Position numbers and translations under genes: made by a program
Notes under the pieces: model-generated
Seen by the model: only the letters and a program-made list of their open reading frames with translations
Told to the model about the DNA's origin: nothing
Database searches by the model: none
Assembly: GCA_017519885.1 (NCBI GenBank)
Contig: JAFWRO010000012.1
Location: 133,175 to 197,174, forward strand
Reading direction: 5' to 3'
Source of the DNA: Bacteroidales bacterium
Lineage (GTDB): Bacteria; Bacteroidota; Bacteroidia; Bacteroidales; UBA3663
Length of the DNA stretch: 64,000 nt
Shown: positions 3,893 to 61,162 of the stretch, piece by piece
How the letters are laid out: every line of letters begins with the position of its first letter
Numbering within the stretch: position 1 is the stretch's first letter

Positions 3893-4017
3893 AGGTTATG
3901 AAAGGTTAAGAGGGGTTAAGAAAGGTTCGAAGGGTTCGTTTTTTTCGGAATATCGAAATACCGTTATCACGTAATTCCGATATAACTTAATACCGAATCG
4001 CGTGAAGAAATAATATA

Positions 4018-4713
4018 ATGATGAATATTTCAAATAAGATAGGAATTGCATCGATTGCGCTGACCATGCTGGCAGGGCATATGACGGCACAGGAAGTCGT
4101 CGCGCCCAACTATCGTGAGATCCGCACATCGATACAGAACAGCAAGAGCCCGAACTACTATCCACAGCTCATGCGGAGATACTTGGAAAACGATACCACA
4201 CTCACCCTCGAGCAATATCGATGCCTCTACTATGGCTATACGCTCCAAGAGGACTTCGTGCCCTATCAGAAAGAAAGGGAGAAACTCTTCGAGATACGCC
4301 GCGAACTGGTCAACACCAATGGCAGCAAGTCAACCTGCACCGAGGCCATCAAAGTGGCGCAATCGGCACTGGAGGACGATCCATTCGACCTGCTTGCCAT
4401 CTCCACACTCGCATTCTCGTACCTTCAGTTGAAAGACACGGTGAGCCACTCGCTGTGGAACAACAAGCAGGATGCACTACTCGATGCCATCGTGTCGAGC
4501 GGTGATGGTACAGATGTTGATGATGCCATCCACGTCATCAATCTCGAGCATGAATACGAAGTGCTGAACCGTCTGGGTCTGCAAATCGAATCCGACTCGC
4601 TTTGCAACGACAACGTGGAATATCTGAGGGTCCAGCCGAATGCCGAGGACGTGAGAGGCGTCTTCTTCAACTTTGGCGCTTGCCGACAGGCTTATCGCAA
4701 GAAGTATGAGTGA
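4018..4713 (+). CDS. Secreted hypothetical protein (DUF4919-like)
   Basis: The 231-aa ORF has a signal peptide (IGIASIALTMLAGHMTAQ). The family assignment is from memory only. Confidence 0.45.
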   Translation: MMNISNKIGIASIALTMLAGHMTAQEVVAPNYREIRTSIQNSKSPNYYPQLMRRYLENDTTLTLEQYRCLYYGYTLQEDFVPYQKEREKLFEIRRELVNTNGSKSTCTEAIKVAQSALEDDPFDLLAISTLAFSYLQLKDTVSHSLWNNKQDALLDAIVSSGDGTDVDDAIHVINLEHEYEVLNRLGLQIESDSLCNDNVEYLRVQPNAEDVRGVFFNFGACRQAYRKKYE

Positions 4714-4764: not shown

Positions 4765-4798
4765 TAGGGGCGCATCACGCAATCGTGATACGCCCCTA
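4765..4798. terminator. Bidirectional hairpin between convergent genes
   Basis: TAGGGGCGCATCACG-caa-CGTGATACGCCCCTA lies between the stop at 4713 (+) and the stop at 4819 (-). Confidence 0.6.
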
Positions 4799-4818
4799 AC
4801 TATTGAAGAAAAATCACC

Positions 4819-6327
4819 TTACTTAGAAAGATCTACAGCGAAGTAACCCACACGGCCTTGAGCAGTAACTGCGGCGATGAACATCACAGGATCCTGATCG
4901 GCAGAACGCTTGGTGGTAAGCTGGTTGAAGATGTTCTCGATGTCCTTGTCGCTCTTCACGGCCTGGTCATTGATCTTGATGATGACCATCTTCTCGCGAA
5001 GACCTGCACGATAGAAGAGTCCGTTGGTCTCAAGCTTATCAATCTGTACGCCTGTACGAACGCCATAGCGGATGAGTTCCTCGGCAGAGAGATTCTTGAA
5101 TGTGGCACCCAGTTTGTCAATACCCTTTGTCTGGATCACGTCGGTGTTGCCCTTGGTGTTCTTGAGCGTGACGGTGAAGTTCTTCTTTTCACCCTTACGA
5201 TCGACTACGACCTTCACCTTATCGCCTGGACGATAGCGGGCAATCTCGCCTTGGAGTTGAGCCATGGTATTGATGGTGGTTCCGTTGACTGAAGTGATGA
5301 CGTCACCTGGCTTGATGCCTGCCTCTGAAGCGCCTCCATCTTCGGATACCTGATCGACATAAACGCCCTCGTTGACCTTCAGATCCTTCTGCTCAACCAC
5401 GTCGGCATTGACATCACCACCGATGATACCGAGCAGTGCACGCTGAACGGTACCGTACTGCTTCAAGTCGGTTACAACCTTGCTCACAATGCTCGAAGGC
5501 ACTGCGAAGGAATAACCTGCATAGTTGCCGGTCTGCGAATAGATTGCGGTATTGATGCCCACAAGTTCACCGGCCGTATTGACGAGGGCGCCACCCGAGT
5601 TACCGGGATTGACGGCTGCATCGGTCTGGATGAAACTTTCGATACCGAGTTTGCTGCTGCCTACACTGATGCTACGTGCCTTGGCGCTGACGATACCTGC
5701 GGTGACTGTGCTGGTGAGGTTGAATGGATTGCCCACGGCAAGTACCCATTCGCCTATCTTCAGCGCATCACTCTGTCCAATAGGGATGGTGGGAAGGTCC
5801 TTGGCATCAATCTTGAGCAAAGCGATGTCTGTGGTAGGATCAGTGCCCACAAGAGTTGCGGTGAACTGACGACGATCGTTGAGGGTGACGGTGAGTTCGT
5901 CAGCCTTTTCAATCACGTGATTGTTGGTGACGATGTATCCATCGCTCGAGATAATGACACCCGAACCGGCGCCAACGGGCATAGGATCGCTCGACTGTGG
6001 CTCCTCCTGACGCTGGCCACGCTGACCGAAGAAGAAGTCGAAGAAAGGATCGTTCATACCACCGAACGACTGAGTCTGACGTACCTGCTTGTTGGTGATG
6101 CCCACCACGGCATTCACCGTCTTCTCGGCTGCACGCGTGAAGTCATTATCGGTCACCGAACCCGTGGAGGTGGTGAAAAAGCCAGTAGGTGTTAGTGATA
6201 TCGAACTATCCTGCTGGGCAAGGGTATTTACCATCCTGCCCTCCATTACCTTAAATGTGGCTACAGCAGTCACACCACTCACTACAACCATTGCTCCTAA
6301 GAGCTTTAATACACTACTTGTTTTCAT
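4819..6327 (-). CDS. htrA: Do/HtrA-family periplasmic serine endopeptidase with two PDZ domains
   Basis: ORF 4819..6396, trimmed to the ATG at 6325-6327 (MKTSSVLKLLGAMVVV). The catalytic triad context is TNNHVI, DIALLKI and NPGNSGGALVN. Confidence 0.9.
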   Translation of the reverse strand: MKTSSVLKLLGAMVVVSGVTAVATFKVMEGRMVNTLAQQDSSISLTPTGFFTTSTGSVTDNDFTRAAEKTVNAVVGITNKQVRQTQSFGGMNDPFFDFFFGQRGQRQEEPQSSDPMPVGAGSGVIISSDGYIVTNNHVIEKADELTVTLNDRRQFTATLVGTDPTTDIALLKIDAKDLPTIPIGQSDALKIGEWVLAVGNPFNLTSTVTAGIVSAKARSISVGSSKLGIESFIQTDAAVNPGNSGGALVNTAGELVGINTAIYSQTGNYAGYSFAVPSSIVSKVVTDLKQYGTVQRALLGIIGGDVNADVVEQKDLKVNEGVYVDQVSEDGGASEAGIKPGDVITSVNGTTINTMAQLQGEIARYRPGDKVKVVVDRKGEKKNFTVTLKNTKGNTDVIQTKGIDKLGATFKNLSAEELIRYGVRTGVQIDKLETNGLFYRAGLREKMVIIKINDQAVKSDKDIENIFNQLTTKRSADQDPVMFIAAVTAQGRVGYFAVDLSK

Positions 6328-6520: not shown

Positions 6521-6898
6521 GCAGTAGGCCTGTCTGTCGCTCGCTCCACGCGAGAGGAAAGTCCGGGCTACACAGGGCTCCATGCCGGTTAACAGCCGGT
6601 AGGCGGCGACGTTTAGGTTAACGTAACAGAAAATAACCGCCCCGCAAGGGGTAAGGGTGAAAAGGCGAGGTAAGAGCTCACCGCACACTTGGTAACAAGG
6701 CGTGGCTGTACGTCCCATGGGTTGTAAGATCATGTATACTGGTGGTTGGTACGTGTCGGAAACGATACTGTGTCCATGAAGGGCGGCCCGTCCAAGCCAG
6801 GGGGTAGATTGCTAAAGTGCGTCAGTAATGGCGAACTCAGATCAATGGCAGACACCTGTCGAAAGACAGGGACGGAACCCGGCTTATCAGCCTACTGC
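6521..6898 (+). ncRNA. rnpB: RNase P RNA, bacterial type A
   Basis: Universal motifs are present: GAGGAAAGTCCGGGCT at 6554-6569, ACAGAAAATAACCGCC, GGTAAGGGTGAAAAGG and ACGGAACCCGGCTTAT at 6872-6887. The P1 helix pairs GCAGTAGGC (6521-6529) with GCCTACTGC (6890-6898). Confidence 0.95.
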
Positions 6899-6919
6899 AT
6901 TTTTTACTAAAAACCGAGA

Positions 6920-13409: not shown

Positions 13410-15026
13410 TTATTCGAATGCACCCATCTTGAGCATGCTTACCTCCTGCTGGGTGAGGTGACGCCAGCGGCCACGTGGCAGGTTCTTCTTGGTGAGTCCT
13501 GCGAAATAAACGCGGTCGAGCTTCACGACACGATAGCCGAGGTGCTCGAAGATACGACGCACGATACGGTTCTTGCCCGAGTGGATCTCGATACCAACCT
13601 GGTTCTTGTCCTCTTCGTTGGCATAAGCAATGGCATCAGCATGGATAGGACCATCGTCAAGTTCGATGCCTGCTGCAATACGAGCGAGATCGGTCTCGGC
13701 CACATCCTTGTCAAGCCATACGTGATAGATCTTCTTCTTGATGTACTTGGGATGGGTGAGTTTCGAAGCGAGGTCACCATCGTTGGTGAGGAGCAGCACA
13801 CCAGTGGTGTTGCGGTCGAGACGACCAACAGGATAGATACGCTCGCGGCTTGCATTGCGCACCAGATCCATAACGGTCTGACGGCCCTGTGGATCATCGC
13901 TGGTGGTGACGGTATCCTTCGGCTTGTTGAGGAGTACATAGACCTTGCGCTCGAGGCTTACGGGCTGGTCGTTGAAGGTCACCTGATCCTTGCGGGTCAC
14001 CTTGGTGCCGAGTTCGGTAACGACCTCACCGTTTACCTTGACCAAACCAGCTGCGATGTGCTCGTCGGCTTCACGACGCGAGCAAACGCCTGCATTGGCC
14101 AAATACTTGTTGAGACGCAGTTCCTCATTCGGATCGACGATTGCCTCGGTGTATTCCACCGGACGATGTGGGTTGTAGCCCTGATGCTTGCGATTGGGTT
14201 TCTGCTTCTGAGGACGTCCGAAACCGCCCTGCTGGGGACGACCGTAGCCACCCTGCTGGGGACGACCATAACCGCCCTGCTGGGGACGACCGTAACCGCC
14301 CTGCTGTGGACGACTGTAACCACCCTGCTGGGGACGGCCATAACCACCCTGCTGACGACCGTAACCGCCCTGTGGACGGCCGTAGCCACCCTGCTGGGGA
14401 CGCTGATAGCCGCGTGGCTGGTAACCGCCCTGTGGCTGATAGTTCTGCACATAGCCGCCTTCCTGTGGCTGCTGATTCTCCTGAGCCTTGCCTTCCTGTG
14501 GCTCGCCCTGGGGCTGCTGATAGCCCTGATTATCATTGTAGCGCTGGTAGCCGTTATTGGGACGCTGTGGACGCTGGTAGCTCTGATAGCCGCCCTGCTC
14601 GCCATCCTGGTTGTAACGACGATAACCGCCCTGGGGACGCTGGGGACGCTGATAGCTACCCTGGTAGCCGCCGCCCTGTGGACGCTGGTAGCCACCACCC
14701 TGCTGATAGCCGCCTTCGCCTTCCTGTGGGCGCTGATAGCCTTCGCCATCCTGCATTGGACGCTGGTAACCGCCACCACGCTGATAGCCACCACCACGCT
14801 GGTAGCCGCCACCACGCTGATAACCGCCGCCACGACCATATCCGCTATAGTCGTTGGCGCCACCGCGCTGATAAGAGTTACGTGACTGTGGATCATAGGC
14901 GGCTGCGTTACCGAAGCGGCTCTCGCCGATTCTGGGACGACGCTTTGGCGCCTGCTGTGATGCACCTTCTGGTGCTGCATTACCCTCCTGTGGGGTATTT
15001 GCCTGTGGGTTCTGATTTTCTTCCAT
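13410..15026 (-). CDS. rluB: 23S rRNA pseudouridine synthase (RluB/RsuA family) with a ~295-aa RGG/YQ low-complexity N-terminal extension
   Basis: The S4 domain is [30 protein letters not shown] and the catalytic loop is [19 protein letters not shown]. The track start at 15032 is a TTG; the first ATG is at 15024-15026, 2 nt after the purB stop. Confidence 0.85.
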
Positions 15027-27148: not shown

Positions 27149-29248
27149 ATGACCTGGCTTTGGTACCCCGCCGACTTCGAAATCTGGCTCGGCAATCGCT
27201 TCAACAACCGGCGCACCGAACGCGGTGCGATGTTCCCACCCTTCTGGAAACAGGATAGCCATTGGGCTACTGTCGAATTCAGTCGCGAATATGAATTGGC
27301 AAAGCCCGAAACCATCCGCATCTATGTGGAGGGCCGCTACAACTTCATGTTCGATGGCAAGCTGCAGTTCGGCGAACCCACCGAATGGTTGGTCCCCGCA
27401 GGCCGTCACAAGATCAACATCAAGGTCCACAATCCCGCCACGCCTCCTGCCCTCTTCATCGAGGGAGAAACTATCCAATCCGACTCCTCCTGGCGCGTCA
27501 CCCATGAGGACAAGATCTGGATTGACGAAAACGGTGTCGCACATGGTTCGGGCATCTACCTCGTCCCAGGGTTCTGGAATTTCAATACGCCCTCAGATCG
27601 TCCTTCCCTCTTCCGTCTTGCACGCGAGGAATGGAAAGCAGTATCCACGCGCGTCCTATCGGGCACATCTTCCGACGAACCTTCGAACGGGATAGCCACA
27701 ACCCTACTCGTCGATTTCGGCAAGGAGACCATGGGTTACATCGTCCTCAACGGCATCCAGGGCCACGGCATCGTCGAACTCTATTACGGCGAAAGCGAAG
27801 CTGAAGCACTCGACAAGGAATATTGCGAGACGCTCGACAAGCTTGAGGTCGAGACGTGTCCGCGCTTCGTAGTCCCCGAGTCGAAAGCCTTCCGCTTCGT
27901 GCAGGTCGTGCTTCCCGAGGGGATGACAGTCGAAAGTGTCAGCATGGAGTACGAATATCTGCCGCAGGACCTCACGCGCAGCGGTTCGTTCGAATGTTCC
28001 GACGACGAACTCAACCGCATCTGGCAAGTAGGGGCTTACACGATGGACCTCACCACACGTGAATTTATGATGGACGGCATCAAGCGCGACCGCTGGACTT
28101 GGTCAGGTGATGCCATTCAGTCCTATCTGATGAACTATTACCTGCGCTTCGACAGCGACACGGTGAAGCGCACCATCCGTCAGTTGCGCGGCAAAGATCC
28201 CGTCTCGTCCCACATCAACACCATCCTCGACTATACCTTCTACTGGTTCAAGTCAGTCTATGACTATTATCAATACACAGGTGACCGCGACTTCGTCTGC
28301 GAGATGTATCCGCGCATGCTCACCCTTATGGACTACTGCCTGGGCCGCCTCTCTGAGGGTTGGGCCATCGGTCAGCCCGACGATTGGGTCTTCATCGACT
28401 GGGTCGATTTCCCGATGCACAAGCGCGGCATCGTCTGCTTCGAGCAGATCCTTTTCTGCAAGAGCCTCGAAACGATGCAGCTCTGCAAGGACCTTGTTGG
28501 CCCGCTCTCTGACTTGCAGATGAGCAACCTGCACCTCACCTATCCCAATGTGGACTATGGAGCCAAAGCGGCCGAACTCCGCTCGAAAATCGACAAGACC
28601 TTCTGGAGCCCTTCCGCCCATGCCTATCTCCATGCCCTCGAACCCGACCTCAACCCTCAGGTCAACAAGTTCGCCAGCATGTTCGCCATCCTCTATGGTT
28701 ATGCCGACGAGCAGCGCCAGCACGAGATCCTACAGTATGTGATGCAGAACCCCGAAGTGCCTGCCATCACCACACCCTACATGCGCTTCTACGAACTCGC
28801 CGCACTCTGCCAACTCGGTCAGCACGACGATGTCCTCTCCGAAATCAAGGCCTACTGGGGCGGCATGTTGCACGAAGGGGCTACGACGTTCTGGGAGAAG
28901 TACAATCCCGAAATGAAGGGTGACGAACACCTCACGATGTATGGTCGTCCCTATGGCAAGTCGCTCTGCCATGCTTGGGGAGCCAGCCCCGTCTATCTGC
29001 TCGGCCGTTATTTCCTCGGCATCGAGCCGACTTCTCCTGGTTATACCACATGGCAGGCAAAACCTCATCTATCCAACCTCGACTGGATGCGCGGAGCTGT
29101 GCCCACGCCTTTCGGTCCCATCCGTATCGAACTCTCTAAGCACAAAGTTACCCTAACCACCCCTCTCGGCATTGGCACCGGCTCGCTCTTCATCGATGGA
29201 AAGACTTTCGCCATTCTTCCAGCACAAACCATTGTAATCGACTATTGA
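27149..29248 (+). CDS. GH78-like alpha-L-rhamnosidase-family six-hairpin glycosidase (no signal peptide)
   Basis: DGIKRDRWTWSGD matches the DCPxRDERxGWxGD entry motif of the GH78 catalytic domain. The (alpha/alpha)6 C-terminal region contains LCHAWGASPVYLL. Confidence 0.6.
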   Translation: MTWLWYPADFEIWLGNRFNNRRTERGAMFPPFWKQDSHWATVEFSREYELAKPETIRIYVEGRYNFMFDGKLQFGEPTEWLVPAGRHKINIKVHNPATPPALFIEGETIQSDSSWRVTHEDKIWIDENGVAHGSGIYLVPGFWNFNTPSDRPSLFRLAREEWKAVSTRVLSGTSSDEPSNGIATTLLVDFGKETMGYIVLNGIQGHGIVELYYGESEAEALDKEYCETLDKLEVETCPRFVVPESKAFRFVQVVLPEGMTVESVSMEYEYLPQDLTRSGSFECSDDELNRIWQVGAYTMDLTTREFMMDGIKRDRWTWSGDAIQSYLMNYYLRFDSDTVKRTIRQLRGKDPVSSHINTILDYTFYWFKSVYDYYQYTGDRDFVCEMYPRMLTLMDYCLGRLSEGWAIGQPDDWVFIDWVDFPMHKRGIVCFEQILFCKSLETMQLCKDLVGPLSDLQMSNLHLTYPNVDYGAKAAELRSKIDKTFWSPSAHAYLHALEPDLNPQVNKFASMFAILYGYADEQRQHEILQYVMQNPEVPAITTPYMRFYELAALCQLGQHDDVLSEIKAYWGGMLHEGATTFWEKYNPEMKGDEHLTMYGRPYGKSLCHAWGASPVYLLGRYFLGIEPTSPGYTTWQAKPHLSNLDWMRGAVPTPFGPIRIELSKHKVTLTTPLGIGTGSLFIDGKTFAILPAQTIVIDY

Positions 29249-29285
29249 TATTTTGAGTGAAGAGACTCTAACAAAACGACAAGCT

Positions 29286-29918
29286 ATGAATCAAACGAAT
29301 CGGCTCCACCTCTTGCTACTGTCCTTTGTCGTCATAGTCTTCATATGGTCAGCAATCAATGTGCAGGACACCTATCTCACCTGGGCGCTTGAAGCTGCGC
29401 CTGTCATAATCGCACTACCTATCCTCCTCTTCACCTATAAGAAGTTTAAATTCCCCACTTCTATTTATGTCATTATCACCATTCACATGGCGCTTTTGCT
29501 TGTCGGTGCACATTATTCTTATGCTAAAGTACCCCTTGGTGAATGGATGAAGGATTGGTTCGGCTTCGAACGCAACAACTATGATAAGATAGGACATTTC
29601 ATGCAAGGATTCACGCCCGCCCTTGTTTCGGTGGAGATTATTCGTCGCTGCAACCCGCTTACATCTTTCAAGTGGATAAGTTTCTTCTCGTTCTGCATCT
29701 CAATGACCGTTGCAGCCCTCTACGAAATCATTGAATGGCTCTCGTCTTTGGGCAATCCGGAAGACACCGAAGCTTTCCTGGGTACACAAGGATACATCTG
29801 GGATACACAGTCGGATATGTTCATGTGTCTTTGCGGAGCAGTCATCGCCATTCTCCTATTAAGGACCATCCATCCGTGGTCATCGAAAACTCAAACAAGA
29901 GAAGGACGTCAGCCGTGA
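29286..29918 (+). CDS. DUF2238 (YjdF-like) inner-membrane protein
   Basis: The track start at 29253 is a TTG, so the first ATG at 29286 is used. The protein has multiple TM helices and the FERNNYDKIGHFMQGF motif typical of DUF2238. Confidence 0.65.
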   Translation: MNQTNRLHLLLLSFVVIVFIWSAINVQDTYLTWALEAAPVIIALPILLFTYKKFKFPTSIYVIITIHMALLLVGAHYSYAKVPLGEWMKDWFGFERNNYDKIGHFMQGFTPALVSVEIIRRCNPLTSFKWISFFSFCISMTVAALYEIIEWLSSLGNPEDTEAFLGTQGYIWDTQSDMFMCLCGAVIAILLLRTIHPWSSKTQTREGRQP

Positions 29919-29927
29919 CATCCTGCC

Positions 29928-30347
29928 TTATAACCTTTTTTGGCCAAGATTGGGTATTCTCCTCCAGAAGTATGACCTTTCTTGGCCAAAATTGGGTATG
30001 CGCCTACCGCGGCATGACCTTTCTTGGCCAAGATTGGGTATGCGCCCATCACGGCATGACCATTCCTGGCCAAGATTGGGTATGCGCCCATCGCTGCATG
30101 ACCTTTTCTGGCCAAGATTGGGTATGCGCCCATCGTGGCATGACCTTTCTTGGCCAAGATTGGGTATGCGCCCATCGCGGCATGACCATTCCTGGCCAAG
30201 ATTGGGTATACGCCAACCGCGGCATGACTTTTTCTGGCCAAGTTTGGGTATGCGCCTATCGCGGCATAACCTTTTTTGGCAAAGATTGGGTATAAAACGA
30301 CATCGGCATGACCAATCTTAGCCAATATTGGTCATGCCGATGTTGTA
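29928..30347. repeat. Tandem array A: 10 units of exactly 42 bp, ending in a perfect 16-bp-arm hairpin
   Basis: Units start at 29928, 29970, 30012, ... 30306 with no indels. The consensus is GCATGACCTTTCTTGGCCAAGATTGGGTATGCGCCCATCGCG. The terminal hairpin pairs CATCGGCATGACCAAT (30301-30316) with ATTGGTCATGCCGATG (30327-30342). It lies 54 nt downstream of the GH2 stop on the minus strand and is followed there by TTTTAT. Confidence 0.9.
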
Positions 30348-30395
30348 GATTGCTGAATCTCTATTCAAACCAGGTTTTCTACAATCATATCGTCG

Positions 30396-32204
30396 TTATT
30401 TCTGTTCGTACCACTCCTTCAGCACATAAAAGGCCTTTTTCTTTTCTCCGTTATCGGAGAAGAGTCCTTTGCGATTGTAGTAGTCCTGAACACCATTGAG
30501 CACACGACGAGGAGAGCGGAAGTCCTTCAGAATCCAGGGAGAGGTGCCAGCCAAGCCCTCAACCTTGTCGAGCATGGCGCAGTTCTCGCGATAGAGGTTC
30601 TCCTGGAATTCTTCCGTCCAGCGCTGATTCTTCTCCCCATGAAGGCCATATTTGGCACCACCACCGAACTCGCTGACGATGACTGGTTTGTCGTAAGGAA
30701 TTTCCCACGACATCTTCGCAGCATCGTTCACATCACGATACCAACCGATGTATTGGTTGAAACTTACCACATCGACATATTCGTGCATATTGTCCTGCAG
30801 ACGATTCTTGAAGTTGGAAGCCGATGTAACCTCCATCGCCATGGAGATGAGACGTGAGGTGTCGAGCGAACGAGCGTGCAACGCCAAACGACTCAGGAAC
30901 TGGTCGCGTTCGGGCGAATGGGGCGTTTCGTTGGCAATGCTCCAGATGATGACATTGGCGCGGTTCTGATCGCGCAGAATCATGTCGGTCAACTGACGCT
31001 CGGCATTTTTGTAGGTGTCAGGATTGGTCCATGCAATGGTCCAATAGACGGGAATCTCCGACCAGACGAGAATGCCCATTCGCTCTGCCTCGCGCACGGC
31101 ATATTCGTTATGGGGATAATGAGCAAGGCGAACGAAGTTACAGCCCAGTTCCTTTGCCCATGAAAGCAGCGTGTGGGCATCTTCGGTCGAATTGGCACGT
31201 CCTCCTCCATTAGGTTTCTCCTCATGGATGCTGATTCCCTTGAGGAAGATGGGCTGACCATTGAGCAGCAAATGTTTGCCACGCGTTTCGATAGTGCGGA
31301 AGCCTATCTCATCCTTGATAATCTCCTCACCCAACCGAATCTCCACCTGATAAAGCTTGGAATTTTCGGGCGACCATAGCTGCACTTTCCTGACCTTCAT
31401 AGTCACTGAAGCAGTGCCTTCATTATCGGTTGTAACAACCTGATGCAGTTTCAGTTCAGGGACGTCGAGCGTGACCTGCTGTCCTGCCTCTGCCTTATTG
31501 AGTTTGACGCTGAATGTGACTGGACGAGTGCCCCGTTTGTCAACCTCCGTACTAGCAAGACAAAGGCAATAATTCTCTACATAGGTGGGAGCGACATCGA
31601 TGAGCAGCACGTCGCGTGTGATGCCACCATAGTTCCACCAGTCGAAGATCTGGGTTGGAACATTCTCGGCATGGCGCTTGTTATCGACCTTGAGGATGAC
31701 GAAGTTTTCACCCTCCTTCAACTCATCGGTCACATCGTAGTTGAAAGGAGTAAAACCTCCCACATGATGTCCGACAAACTTGCCATTGACATAGACATGT
31801 GCATCGTAGTTGACTGCACCGAAATAGAGCAAGGTGCGATGGTTCCCGTTGGGACGCCAGTCGAAAGAACGCTTGAACCACACGGTACCCTCATAAAAGA
31901 ACAGACGTTCGTCCTGAGTGTTCCAATCGCCAGGCACCTGCATGGTCGGAGCCTTGTCGAAGTCGTACTCGATGAGGTCTTCGGGACGCTGCGGCTTGGC
32001 ATTGACGAAAAAGCCCCAACGCATGGGCTTCATACGATAGTCGTAGTAGCCCTCCTCCTGCACATCGACAATATAGTTCCAGGAGCCATTGAGCGAAGTT
32101 GTCTGACGTGCCAGCACATTAGCCACTTGTGGCACCTCGTTTGCTACGATTGTCCCTCCTGCCAAACAGTAGAGGAAACACAAGGAAGTCAAGAGTTTTT
32201 TCAT
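30396..32204 (-). CDS. Glycoside hydrolase family 2 (beta-glucuronidase-like)
   Basis: A signal peptide is followed by the GH2 sugar-binding domain (LLYFGAVNYDAHVYVNGKFVGHHVGGFTPFNYDVT). The TIM barrel carries NFVRLAHYPHNE and the acid/base motif WSIANE. Confidence 0.85.
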   Translation of the reverse strand: MKKLLTSLCFLYCLAGGTIVANEVPQVANVLARQTTSLNGSWNYIVDVQEEGYYDYRMKPMRWGFFVNAKPQRPEDLIEYDFDKAPTMQVPGDWNTQDERLFFYEGTVWFKRSFDWRPNGNHRTLLYFGAVNYDAHVYVNGKFVGHHVGGFTPFNYDVTDELKEGENFVILKVDNKRHAENVPTQIFDWWNYGGITRDVLLIDVAPTYVENYCLCLASTEVDKRGTRPVTFSVKLNKAEAGQQVTLDVPELKLHQVVTTDNEGTASVTMKVRKVQLWSPENSKLYQVEIRLGEEIIKDEIGFRTIETRGKHLLLNGQPIFLKGISIHEEKPNGGGRANSTEDAHTLLSWAKELGCNFVRLAHYPHNEYAVREAERMGILVWSEIPVYWTIAWTNPDTYKNAERQLTDMILRDQNRANVIIWSIANETPHSPERDQFLSRLALHARSLDTSRLISMAMEVTSASNFKNRLQDNMHEYVDVVSFNQYIGWYRDVNDAAKMSWEIPYDKPVIVSEFGGGAKYGLHGEKNQRWTEEFQENLYRENCAMLDKVEGLAGTSPWILKDFRSPRRVLNGVQDYYNRKGLFSDNGEKKKAFYVLKEWYEQK

Positions 32205-38076: not shown

Positions 38077-39339
38077 ATGATGAAACGTTTGATTCTGGCT
38101 GCGCTGGCAGTGGTAGTCACACTTCCCGCAGCAATCTCGACCCAGGCTCAGGACGACGTCTATTACAGCCGTAAGAACAGCCGCAAGCAGGCTTACGAAT
38201 CGACTTCGAACGACGTTTGGTCCACCAAAGCCAATGACGATTGGGACGTTGACGCCTACAACCGTCGGTCGTCTTCGTTCAACACTACTCCCGAAATAAC
38301 ACTGCAGAGCGACAGCTTGATGCTTTCCGCTCAACCCAAAGCTGTGCCCGACACCATTTACGTGGTGGAGCAGTATTATAACAGCAACCGTATTCGCCGC
38401 TTCCACAATCCGCGATTCACCTGGTGGATGTGGGACCCCTGGTATGACGTTGCATATTGGGATCCATACTTCTGGGATTACTGCTACTGGGATCCCTGGT
38501 GGTATGTCACCCCCGCCTTCGGTTTTCACTGGGGCAGCTGGTGGTATGGCTGGAACTATGGCTACTACACCGGATGGTACGGCGGATGGTACTCTCCCTT
38601 CTATCATCCTTATCCCCACTACTGGGGTCCATACTGGTATGGTGGTGGAGGTGGCTACCGCAACAACATGGGTGGACACTATGCCCATTACGATGGGCAT
38701 GGAATGGGGAATCACTATGGTCGAAACGGCTTCCATAGCGGACGCGATAATACGCGCACATCTTCAATCTCCACCCAGCCGGGAATTGCCAGCCGTCATG
38801 GTGCCAACCTTCGCAACAGCAACATGCGAGGCGATATGCGCCGCGGCAATCGCGGTCGTGATGGCGGCAACGTGGCAACACGTGGTGGCAACGGTACTCG
38901 CGGCGGTAACGGATCGCGCGGTACTATAGGCGCAGATGGCAGAACATCCACTCGTCCTGGATCGGGCAACAACCCTGCCGTAAGCTCGCGCAGCAATCGC
39001 AACTTCGACAACAGCAGTGCTCGACGTAGCGCCAATGGTGTACGCCAGTCCGACACAGGACGTACAAGCACACGCCAAACTGGTGTTAGCGGTACCCGCA
39101 GCAGTTCACGCGGCAGTGCCAGCGTCAGCGGAAGAGGCGGTGGCGGCTTTCACATCGGCGGTGGCGGCTACAGCGGCGGAAGCTCTCGCAGCAGCGGTGG
39201 CGGCTATAGTGGCGGAAGCTACGGTGGCGGCACACGTAGTGGCGGTGGCGGTGGCGGCGGCAGCTACAGTGGCGGCGGTGGCGGCGGTGGCAGCCATAGC
39301 GGTGGCGGCGGCGGACACAGCGGCGGCGGTCGTCGATAA
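38077..39339 (+). CDS. Secreted low-complexity protein with a Trp/Tyr-rich core, an R/G/N/S-rich middle and a poly-Gly/Ser C-terminal tail
   Basis: The signal peptide is MMKRLILAALAVVVTLPAAISTQAQ. A ~77-aa block (FTWWMWDPWYDVAYWDPYFWDYCYWDPWWY...HYWGPYWY) holds about 18 W and ~20 Y by hand count. The tail is GGGGGGGSYSGGGGGGGSHSGGGGGHSGGGRR. Confidence 0.7.
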   Translation: MMKRLILAALAVVVTLPAAISTQAQDDVYYSRKNSRKQAYESTSNDVWSTKANDDWDVDAYNRRSSSFNTTPEITLQSDSLMLSAQPKAVPDTIYVVEQYYNSNRIRRFHNPRFTWWMWDPWYDVAYWDPYFWDYCYWDPWWYVTPAFGFHWGSWWYGWNYGYYTGWYGGWYSPFYHPYPHYWGPYWYGGGGGYRNNMGGHYAHYDGHGMGNHYGRNGFHSGRDNTRTSSISTQPGIASRHGANLRNSNMRGDMRRGNRGRDGGNVATRGGNGTRGGNGSRGTIGADGRTSTRPGSGNNPAVSSRSNRNFDNSSARRSANGVRQSDTGRTSTRQTGVSGTRSSSRGSASVSGRGGGGFHIGGGGYSGGSSRSSGGGYSGGSYGGGTRSGGGGGGGSYSGGGGGGGSHSGGGGGHSGGGRR

Positions 39340-54977: not shown

Positions 54978-55041
54978 TTGACATCCATCAATTGTTAATT
55001 GTTAATTTTTAATTGTTAATTATTAATTGTTAATTGAATTC

Positions 55042-60016: not shown

Positions 60017-60155
60017 GGGCATATTTCGCAAGTCAGCAAACTTTTTCTCCACATTTTAATCATTACATAGCGTCAGGGTTGTTAATCCGCGACAACCCTT
60101 GCCACCCCCTTCCGAATCTGTCGCCCCGATGTGGGGAAAAAACAAAAAAATCGCA

Positions 60156-60606
60156 GCAAGCATCGTGTCGCGCGTCAGAGTGTTCTATTCTATGGGAGAA
60201 AGCATTGTGTCGCGCGTCAGAGTGCGCTATCCTGCGGGAGCAAGCATTACATCGGCCGTCAGCGTGCTCTATCCTACGGGAGCAAGCATCGTGTCGCGCG
60301 TCAGCGTGCTCTATCCTGTGGCAGCAAGCATCGTGTCGCGCGTCAGAGTGCTCCTTCCTGTGGGGGCAAGCATCCTGTCGCGCGTCAGAGTACTTTATCC
60401 AATCGGAGCAAGCATCCTGTCGCGCGTCAGAGTACTCTATCCAATCGGAGCAAGCATCCTGTCGCGCGTCAGAGTACTCCATCCCGTAGCATCAAGCATC
60501 ATGTCGCCCATCAGAGTGCTCCATCCAATCGCAGCAAGCATCATGTCGCGCGTCAGAGTACTCTATCCGCTCGCATCAAGCATCATGTCGGCCGTCAGAG
60601 TGCTTT
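60156..60606. repeat. Tandem array B: ~10.7 units of exactly 42 bp, from a different sequence family than arrays A and C
   Basis: Units start at 60156, 60198, ... 60576 with no indels. The consensus is GCAAGCATCGTGTCGCGCGTCAGAGTGCTCTATCCTGTGGCA. The array is flanked by A-rich direct repeats, GAAAAAACAAAAAAA (60136-60150) and GAAAAACAAAAAAG (60615-60628). Confidence 0.9.
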
Positions 60607-60700
60607 TAGACATAGAAAAACAAAAAAGCATGATGATGATAGTCTTTCCGACATAGGATAATCACTGCACCTAAATACCGAAAAACAATTTCCCACCATC

Positions 60701-61162
60701 GCATGTCCCCCAACGAACCTTAGCAGACATCTTCCAATCGCCGCATGTCCCCCAGCGAACATTAGCGGACATTCTCCAATCGCTGCATGTCCTCCAGCAA
60801 CCCTTAGCGGACATCTGCCCATCGCCGCATGTCCTTCAGCGAACATTAGCGGATATCCTCTCATCGCCGCATGTCCTTCAGCGAACATTAGAGGACATCC
60901 TTCCATCGTTGCATGTCCTTCAGTGAACGTTAGCGGACATCCTTCCATCACCGCACGTCCTCATGCGAACGTTAACGGACATCTGCTCATCGCCGCATGT
61001 CCCCTAACGAACGTTAGCGGACATCATCCTTTCGTCGCATATCCTTCAGCGAACGTTAGGGGACTTGCCGCTGCCGTAGCATATCCTTCAGTGAACGTTA
61101 GCGGATATGCTTCTATCGAACCATGTCTTCCAACAAATGTTGAAGGACATGCGCGCCTTCGA
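60701..61162. repeat. Tandem array C: 11 units of exactly 42 bp, homologous to array A; each unit is a hairpin and the last unit is an extended hairpin abutting a stop codon
   Basis: Units start at 60701, 60743, ... 61121 with no indels. The consensus is GCATGTCCTTCAGCGAACGTTAGCGGACATCCTTCCATCGCC with an ATGTCC/GGACAT inverted repeat. The terminal hairpin (61122-61151) lies 14 nt after the minus-strand stop at 61165-61167. Confidence 0.9.

Follow-up and report, generated by a model that had tools for sequence, protein, structure and literature searches.

Bacterial genomes are thought to purge non-functional repeats, yet a few lineages keep many intergenic arrays of fixed length and variable sequence. 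Among the described repeat systems, sopC of the F plasmid is made up of twelve direct repeats of 43 bp, in each of which SopB binds an inverted repeat, and in the BrickBuilt element a 22-bp motif is flanked by long terminal inverted repeats. BrickBuilt has been described as a MITE of Porphyromonas gingivalis that contains a minisatellite (PMC4596501). In REPs, the dimers are head-to-head or tail-to-tail, head-to-tail order is negligible and GTAG or CGTC tags are present (PMC3733652). The closest class is that of the 'enigmatic' repeats of constant size and variable sequence. Their length is 52 nt in Bacillus and other Firmicutes, and repeats of 20-21 nt are spread over many phyla. Each species has its own short conserved motifs, the copies mostly number 4-10, and conservation between strains is partial; the papers describing these repeats state that just two sizes were found (PMC8161180, PMC6749651).

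The arrays analysed here represent a new, 42-nt length class of these constant-length bacterial tandem repeats, after the classes of 20-21 and 52 nt. No paper on 42-bp arrays in Prevotella was found in the literature. In common with the class of Subirana & Messeguer, the family forms intergenic arrays, with several sequence families of one length per genome, has a short motif in all repeats (here CCNATCGNNGCA in arrays A, B and C of the window, i.e., of the whole 64,000-nt stretch of Bacteroidales DNA under analysis) and shows partial conservation with copy-number differences between strains. Unlike that class (20-21 or 52 nt), it has units of 42 nt (41 in two arrays), occurs in rumen Prevotellaceae-like Bacteroidales at gene 3' ends, is built of imperfect palindromes, of which the one at a fixed end is a complete hairpin, and includes two-array modules with a conserved spacer. 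The units also resemble REPs and BIMEs, being short imperfect palindromes in the 20-40 bp range with a conserved unpaired motif at the stem foot, extragenic, often placed past gene 3' ends, and present in many clustered copies; the roles in termination and mRNA stabilisation proposed for REPs and BIMEs are similar to those considered here. Unlike the alternating BIMEs, the 42-bp arrays are strictly head-to-tail at a fixed pitch, have no GTAG or CGTC tag and have no solitary copies in the window.

Layout of array A and its terminal hairpin

The window represents core chromosome, with DnaB, LeuRS, LigA, GyrB, UvrD, RecO, trigger factor and the RNase P RNA encoded in it. Array A fills the convergent gap between a DUF2238 gene and a GH2 gene and, laid in register, forms ten rows at an exact 42-bp pitch (29928-30347). 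The ten units and their spacing between these two genes, recorded in the first-pass annotation, were confirmed by Tandem Repeats Finder (29933-30293, 8.6 copies of 42 bp, 87% matches), by the register rows and by Pfam. The features of the locus are as follows:

29253..29918, + strand: DUF2238 membrane-protein gene (Pfam PF09997, E 3e-53), stop codon 29916-29918, 9 nt ahead of array A
29928..30011, + strand: two distal, most-diverged units of array A (29/42 and 37/42), kept in all six orthologous arrays
30012..30263, + strand: six homogenised internal units, GCATGACC-16 nt-GGGTATGC plus linker GCCCATCGNN, weak hairpins
30264..30296, + strand: penultimate unit, A-rich ATAAAA in place of the linker
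30297..30346, no strand assigned: full hairpin at the array end, arms of 16 bp when perfect and of 23 nt at 91%, a probable bidirectional terminator
30396..32204, - strand: GH2 (beta-glucuronidase-like) gene (Pfam), stop codon 30396-30398, 3' end facing the terminal hairpin

The GH2 protein was 96% identical to proteins of cattle-rumen-type metagenome assemblies and about 80% identical to proteins of Prevotella sp. and Xylanibacter ruminicola named beta-glucuronidase.

Each unit follows the plan of a 5' arm (ATCGnnGCATGWCC), a 16-nt centre, a shortened 3' arm and a pyrimidine-rich linker. The rows matched the consensus at 29, 37, 40, 40, 40, 41, 38, 38, 30 and 27 of 42 positions in order, so that identity was lowest in the first two and last two units and highest inside (38-41). 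The array is non-coding, intergenic and head-to-tail, with at least four copies (8.6-10). In this and the other arrays all units are in direct orientation at the 42-bp pitch and whole units repeat without unique spacers. A CRISPR array was rejected, as there were no unique spacers and no cas domains in the window ORFs scanned. No real 21-bp sub-period was present in array A or C (lag-21 identity 0.38-0.51). A 126-bp higher-order repeat, hinted at by the Tandem Repeats Finder rows, was also dismissed since the identity of units three apart (36.6) was regarded as not above that of neighbours (36.1).

Repeats of other kinds were noticed elsewhere in the window. Runs of the AATTGTT heptamer (4-7 copies, 1469-1511 and 54990-55036) were located just upstream of + strand ORFs starting at 1511 and 55042. 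In-frame 24- and 18-nt repeats (14208-14402 and 14760-14834) were found in a pseudouridine-synthase-like ORF (13410-15026), and in-frame GGC-rich repeats (39136-39330) in an ORF with no Pfam match (38077-39339).

The last unit of array A is a perfect hairpin with 16-bp arms (30301-30342), which can be extended to 23-nt arms of 91% complementarity (30297-30319 and 30324-30346). It is located about 50 nt past the GH2 stop codon and is followed on the minus strand by UCGUUUUAUACC, which contains the short U-tract UUUUAU supplied by the ATAAAA of the penultimate unit. As RNA, this unit folded with -29.2 kcal/mol (z -6.9) on the minus strand and -33.3 kcal/mol (z -7.2) on the plus strand. Single internal units of A, B and C folded like shuffled sequence (z -0.04 to -1.6), and the best hairpin of array C was its gene-proximal unit (61120-61161, -18.8 kcal/mol, z -3.9). 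In strain L001, the terminal stem of array A carried a compensatory change from CATCG/CGATG to CAGCG/CGCTG. A perfect 16-bp-arm hairpin followed by UUUUAU in the unit nearest the minus-strand gene, as originally noted, was thus borne out by the hairpin search and by folding (z -6.9). The layout with a perfect first unit, to which significance had been attached, is present as well, but it would be an automatic outcome of tandem duplication of a 42-bp segment lying slightly off an existing hairpin.

Array A's terminal hairpin probably terminates transcription. Like bidirectional intrinsic terminators, the unit is a long GC-containing stem-loop shortly behind GH2 with UUUUAU after it. Unlike them, it has nine further degenerate copies attached and a short U-tract, and in the related locus L241 a separate terminator coexists with an array. 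A simple consensus terminator scan did not call this hairpin, the U-tract of which is short.

Relation of array A to arrays B and C

Tandem Repeats Finder called two further 42-bp arrays in the window, at 60155-60604 (B) and 60700-61064/61118 (C), about 30 kb from array A. With three arrays, the window suggests a density of roughly one per 20 kb. Their features are as follows:

60155..60616, + strand: array B, eleven 42-bp units, hairpin body different, junction motif kept (CCAATCGNAGCA)
60617..60699, + strand: B-C spacer, about 85-90 nt, conserved with both arrays at non-orthologous loci (L105/L126/L178, L024 and L208; L036 without B)
60700..61161, + strand: array C, about eleven 42-bp units homologous to A (Tandem Repeats Finder, register, consensus match, covariance model)

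The consensus sequences of A and C matched at 24 of 42 positions in the best cyclic ungapped comparison, on the same strand and in almost the same register. Shuffled sequence gave 18.1 +/- 1.3, so the similarity, for which shuffling had been proposed as the test, was above expectation (p about 0.002). The homology suggested by hand alignment therefore stood, with the shared positions corrected from about 25 to 24. The sequence CATCGCNGCATGNCC, at up to one mismatch, occurred 11 times in the window, 10 of them within arrays A and C, against 0.19 expected. Array B was not alignable overall with A or C (18-19/42, p 0.3-0.6). The 9-nt junction motif CCNATCGNNGCA was found four times in A, three times in B and three times in C, always on the + strand, and once elsewhere in the 64 kb (1.0 expected), and this motif ties array B in with the other two.

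When 107 distinct A-type and C-type units, taken from 17 loci, were aligned without gaps, the conserved 5' motif was (A/G)TCG-NN-GCATG. The columns were self-complementary about one axis (i with 45-i), with 68% of cells able to pair compared with 35-40% in slid controls, and compensatory differences between unit types were observed, e.g., U-A, A-U and G-C at columns 12/33. The covariance model built from the 107 units, a joint A/C model as initially suggested, independently recovered every A and C unit of the window and nothing else at E < 0.1, which shows that these 64 kb contain no solitary units. The palindromic centres vary between types (TTGGCCAA, AACGTT, CGCGCG) and the spacing is constant. 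As a structured RNA, the B-C spacer was weak, with an unfavourable covariation term.

All three arrays share one orientation with the motif on the + strand. The GC skew of the + strand was negative throughout the window (1-64000), so orientation relative to replication is inseparable here from orientation relative to transcription.

Orthologous and dispersed arrays in related genomes

Six orthologous array A loci with flanks 93-97% identical were compared. The arrays of the window, L001, L002, L114, L130 and L165 contained 10, 9, 9, 9 (with one 2-bp deletion), 10 and 10 units, respectively. The first two and last two units were conserved, and the interiors combined a few variants in mosaic fashion, with their order and number varying between strains. 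In L130 (~4511-4513) and L165 (~4006-4008), about 590 bp comprising most of DUF2238 (window 29232-29820) were missing and the ten-unit array was kept.

The gap behind more divergent GH2 genes had other contents. In L003 (GH2 89% identical), it was 85 bp long and contained one unrelated bidirectional terminator and no array. This terminator (4798-4882) is made of GACCCAGG...CTGGGTC between an A-run and a T-run; its loop has ATCCAATCGGA, identical to the array B linker (window 60397 and 60439). The L004 contig (GH2 87%) stopped 105 bp past GH2, within a C-like unit. In L241 and L242 (GH2 83%), the same gap contained, in the same orientation, a C-like array of 42-bp units (about ten in L241, about eight in L242), and the two gaps (L241 3310-3926, L242 2551-3083) differed by 84 bp, i.e., two whole units. 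Both had a separate perfect canonical terminator right behind GH2, and in L241 the array is located 150 nt beyond it. Since GH2 of L241 has its own terminator, the array is not simply 'the terminator'. The gene caller had annotated a 197-aa ORF through the array of L241. For more distant GH2 homologues, the gene neighbourhood was lost. A single hairpin as the ancestral state, raised as a question at the outset, is thus only partly supported: L003 has one terminator, though an unrelated one, and L241 has a different array type in the gap.

One genome per species was searched for pairs of junction motifs at a distance of 42 bp, and this revealed A-/C-type arrays on 14 contigs of at least eight bins of rumen Bacteroidales (Prevotella-like); in several bins, three or four arrays were spread over different contigs. 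Metagenomes, scanned as well, contributed 13 further contigs of this kind. Grouped by flanks, these contigs represent about 19 independent loci, and they share no flanking coding similarity with the window except for the orthologues L095, L114, L130 and L165. The period was 42 bp, or 41 bp in two arrays without the search motif (L024-B and L077), and the arrays had 5-12 copies, mostly 8-10. The 41-42 bp length thus also applied to arrays that the search motif had not selected. At the right-hand end of the motif strand, the last unit of these arrays ends with GGACATGCnnCGAT, completing the stem with ATCGnnGCATGTCC, and internal units end with GGACAT-CWTCCC. In some arrays, the left flank ends with TTTCCC, resembling the linker.

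In at least three different gene contexts, a C-type array is preceded on its left by a B-type array plus the conserved spacer of about 90 nt. At other loci, the neighbour abutting an A-type array is of B type or is another 41-bp array. The B-spacer-C module was located at 60155-61161 of the window and in L105, L126, L178, L024, L208 and L095. The spacer of L095, a close relative (flanks 92-97% identical at the amino acid level), was much nearer to that of L208 than to that of the window, which suggests replacement or exchange of the module. The array of 41-bp period in L077 (942-1284) represents a fourth sequence type (GTGTTCACAAGTAGTACAATATTGCCGCGAGATGGTATCAA) and directly adjoins an A-type array; that of L024 (571-717) is of B type. 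At the locus L112/L147/L159, the orthologues L152 and L154, with flanks 77-80% identical at the amino acid level, still bear 42-bp arrays with diverged units.

As far as shown, the family of 42-bp arrays with palindromic units is specific to rumen Prevotella-like Bacteroidales. A wider, cross-phylum family was considered because 42-bp arrays with ATCGNNGCATG were seen in Anaerolineales, a deltaproteobacterial bin, Prosthecobacter, Tenacibaculum and others, and it was rejected in a control scan in which the motif spacing was left free (23-53 bp). There, the motif was found inside unrelated tandem repeats of many periods (38, 24, 23, 30, 33, 50 and more), and units of the Prevotella type alone were always spaced 42/42. 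The matches in other phyla are therefore pattern-selected and are no evidence of homology. Other phyla possess multi-locus families of their own, made of intergenic arrays with a fixed period (42 bp or 38 bp) and unrelated in sequence to the Prevotella family, which makes the constant-length phenomenon look widespread. Such arrays were observed in Deltaproteobacteria MAG-93 (L010, L035, L054, L056 and L058) and in Anaerolineales/Anaerolineae (L034, L051, L067, L078, L086, L090 and L111), and the 38-bp family in L145, L155, L187, L193, L213 and others.

It is extremely improbable that array A arose by one-off local slippage, results from faulty assembly or encodes a repetitive protein segment. 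Three of its six reading frames are open throughout, and gene callers sometimes call ORFs through arrays, as in L241. However, the same array of 9-10 units is present in six independent assemblies and the family at about 20 independent loci, and the variation tracks hairpin complementarity, not codon structure. The translated array, compared with 5.8 billion proteins, matched just 12 uncharacterised singletons, spurious ORFs without Pfam domains, and a census through these 12 matches was uninformative. The early opinion that one-off slippage was the less likely origin agrees with the orthologues, the dispersed loci, the complementarity pattern and the translation result, which together refute such an event.

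A recurrent mechanism, or a mobile or templated element, had been favoured instead. This reading is supported, having withstood both of the refuting tests named for it, and the family is dispersed at about 19 further loci, but no mobilising or templating machinery was found. In the most specific form of the idea, the units or arrays would be miniature non-autonomous mobile elements moved in trans by a single-strand DNA enzyme of the HUH/Y1 type (RAYT, IS200/IS605). The junction CC-N-ATCG-NN-GCA at the hairpin foot would be the recognition or cleavage site, and repeated adjacent insertion would give head-to-tail arrays of exact length. Such an origin would fit many non-orthologous loci with several arrays per genome bin, the conserved junction motif next to a variable, covarying hairpin, the strict 41-42 bp unit length, the single orientation of all three window arrays and the B-spacer-C modules in different contexts, with the L095 module nearer to that of L208 than to that of the closely related window. 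It is nevertheless unlikely. No transposase, integrase, reverse transcriptase or cas domain was detected by Pfam among about 50 window ORFs, and no RAYT (Y1 transposase) gene was among the ORFs scanned. Neither target-site duplications nor terminal inverted repeats were seen at array ends, and the window has no solo units. Known REPs are arranged head-to-head or tail-to-tail with GTAG or CGTC tags (PMC3733652), neither of which applies here, and the GC skew on the motif strand was negative at just 12 of 17 loci, which is not significant. The family is like BrickBuilt in being a dispersed intergenic minisatellite in Bacteroidales and unlike it in having no flanking inverted repeats. Phages, plasmids and viral contigs yielded no array copy, the single viral match being due to chance.

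All arrays with judgeable flanks adjoin at least one gene 3' end, and none is located between divergent genes. The association with gene 3' ends, on which the idea of a shared mechanism had been made to depend, was thus seen in related genomes at about 19 further loci where it could be judged, with the fully stemmed unit at the same array end. Where the flanking genes are co-directional (five to six contexts), the motif strand was antisense to them throughout. A strong claim of polarity (11/12) had to be weakened because convergent gaps are uninformative, and the five to six co-directional and zero divergent cases remain. Array A itself is uninformative, as either orientation in a convergent gap puts a gene 3' end on that side. 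At one orthologous locus, the L152 array is inverted relative to the shared flanking gene in comparison with L112 and L154, so that array orientation is not fixed in convergent gaps. The proposed common polarity relative to the upstream gene is seen at co-directional loci (5-6 of 5-6), and as an argument it is weaker for array A than it looks.

Counted over the units, G-U pairs favoured the motif strand over the opposite strand (177 versus 110), which is suggestive only as regards the strand of action. This excess speaks for a reading in which the arrays would be transcribed into repeated small RNAs or an RNA sponge, with the conserved linker exposed between hairpins or in the loop of an alternative register. 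The linker can sit in a loop formed by neighbouring arms, the L003 terminator loop has the B-type linker, and the 52-nt Bacillus repeats were reported to be transcribed (PMC8161180). Such a role is improbable, as neither the single units nor the spacer gave significant structure or covariation, and the G-U bias is modest and derived from units that are not independent. At threshold, Rfam detected RNase P RNA alone in the window (bacterial class A, 6521-6902, + strand, 238 bits), and the arrays gave only sub-threshold generic hairpin matches. No promoter-like site was found in 29000-31000 by a scan that does not cover Bacteroidetes-type promoters.

Proposed origin and function of the arrays

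Array A is best read, with a probability of about one half, as a non-coding, lineage-specific dispersed minisatellite derived from a terminator-type hairpin. Its origin would lie in a pre-existing long hairpin, of which a 42-bp segment, offset slightly to the 5' side and stopping short of the 3' end, was duplicated in tandem. After such a duplication, the last copy alone would keep the full 3' arm and stay a strong hairpin, the other copies would be weak, and every internal junction would bear the original upstream flank. Diverged edges with a homogenised mosaic interior fit what is classically expected of unequal exchange. Such exchange, or slippage during replication, would homogenise the interior and shift the copy number by whole units, with the edges staying fixed. 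The terminal hairpin with its short U-tract would most likely act as an intrinsic, probably bidirectional, terminator and as an RNA 3'-end protector for GH2 and DUF2238. The internal units would be carried along and may add pausing sites or exonuclease barriers.

Derivation from a terminator does not cover all observations. Identical internal linkers and whole B-spacer-C modules in unrelated gene contexts mean that the family must also spread between loci, and slippage in place cannot account for linkers and modules common to unrelated loci. The view of the internal units as passengers is opposed by the persistence of 9-10 copies across strains and, at one locus, of arrays across species with flanks of 77-80% amino acid identity, which is unexpected for neutral passengers in a deletion-biased genome. 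The length of 41-42 bp, held in types as unlike as A, B and C, is not explained by the terminator model. Spread, constancy of length across types and long persistence together point either to some mechanism by which the family spreads or to a constraint acting on the array as such.

One such constraint would exist if the arrays were phased DNA platforms for a dimeric protein, e.g., a nucleoid or segregation factor, with one imperfect palindrome per 42 bp. In function they would correspond to the 43-bp sopC repeats of the F plasmid or share the role proposed for the 21-nt and 52-nt repeats. Length is conserved without sequence conservation across A, B, C and the other types, the centres differ and the spacing is kept, internal units are maintained though they make poor RNA hairpins, and 42/10.5 equals 4.0 helical turns. 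The same idea was put forward for the 20-21 nt and 52 nt repeats (PMC8161180). The resemblance to sopC includes the head-to-tail order, about four helical turns per repeat, a small palindrome in each and about 10-12 copies. In contrast to sopC, the 42-bp arrays lie on the chromosome at many loci per genome, away from partition genes and with palindromes that vary between arrays, and no plasmid matches to the arrays were found. A platform of this kind is quite unlikely: there is no candidate protein, the differing palindromic centres mean that one protein could not read all types, and a symmetric DNA site needs neither the restriction to gene 3' ends nor the co-directional orientation bias.

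Movement as small elements and binding of a phased protein, taken together, receive a smaller yet appreciable share of belief compared with the terminator-derived minisatellite. A bolder proposal, of fairly low probability, is that the units are products of dedicated, as yet unknown machinery, either a single-strand DNA transposase or nuclease acting at CC-N-ATCG-NN-GCA or a protein polymerising on DNA at a four-turn pitch. Under either, the fixed length would be a mechanistic requirement.

In practical terms, the arrays break short-read assemblies, as illustrated by the L004 contig that ends in one, and lead gene callers to annotate spurious ORFs. With the 42-nt arrays, a third length class is added in the ecologically important rumen Prevotellaceae. 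It offers clues absent from the earlier classes: a palindromic unit, a fixed polarity with the complete hairpin facing a gene 3' end, a 9-nt junction motif across otherwise unrelated units, and two-array modules in unrelated contexts. If dedicated machinery does produce the units, this would be the first handle on the reason for which some bacteria keep tandem repeats of constant size and free sequence, whose lengths of 21, 42 and 52 nt correspond to about two, four and five helical turns.
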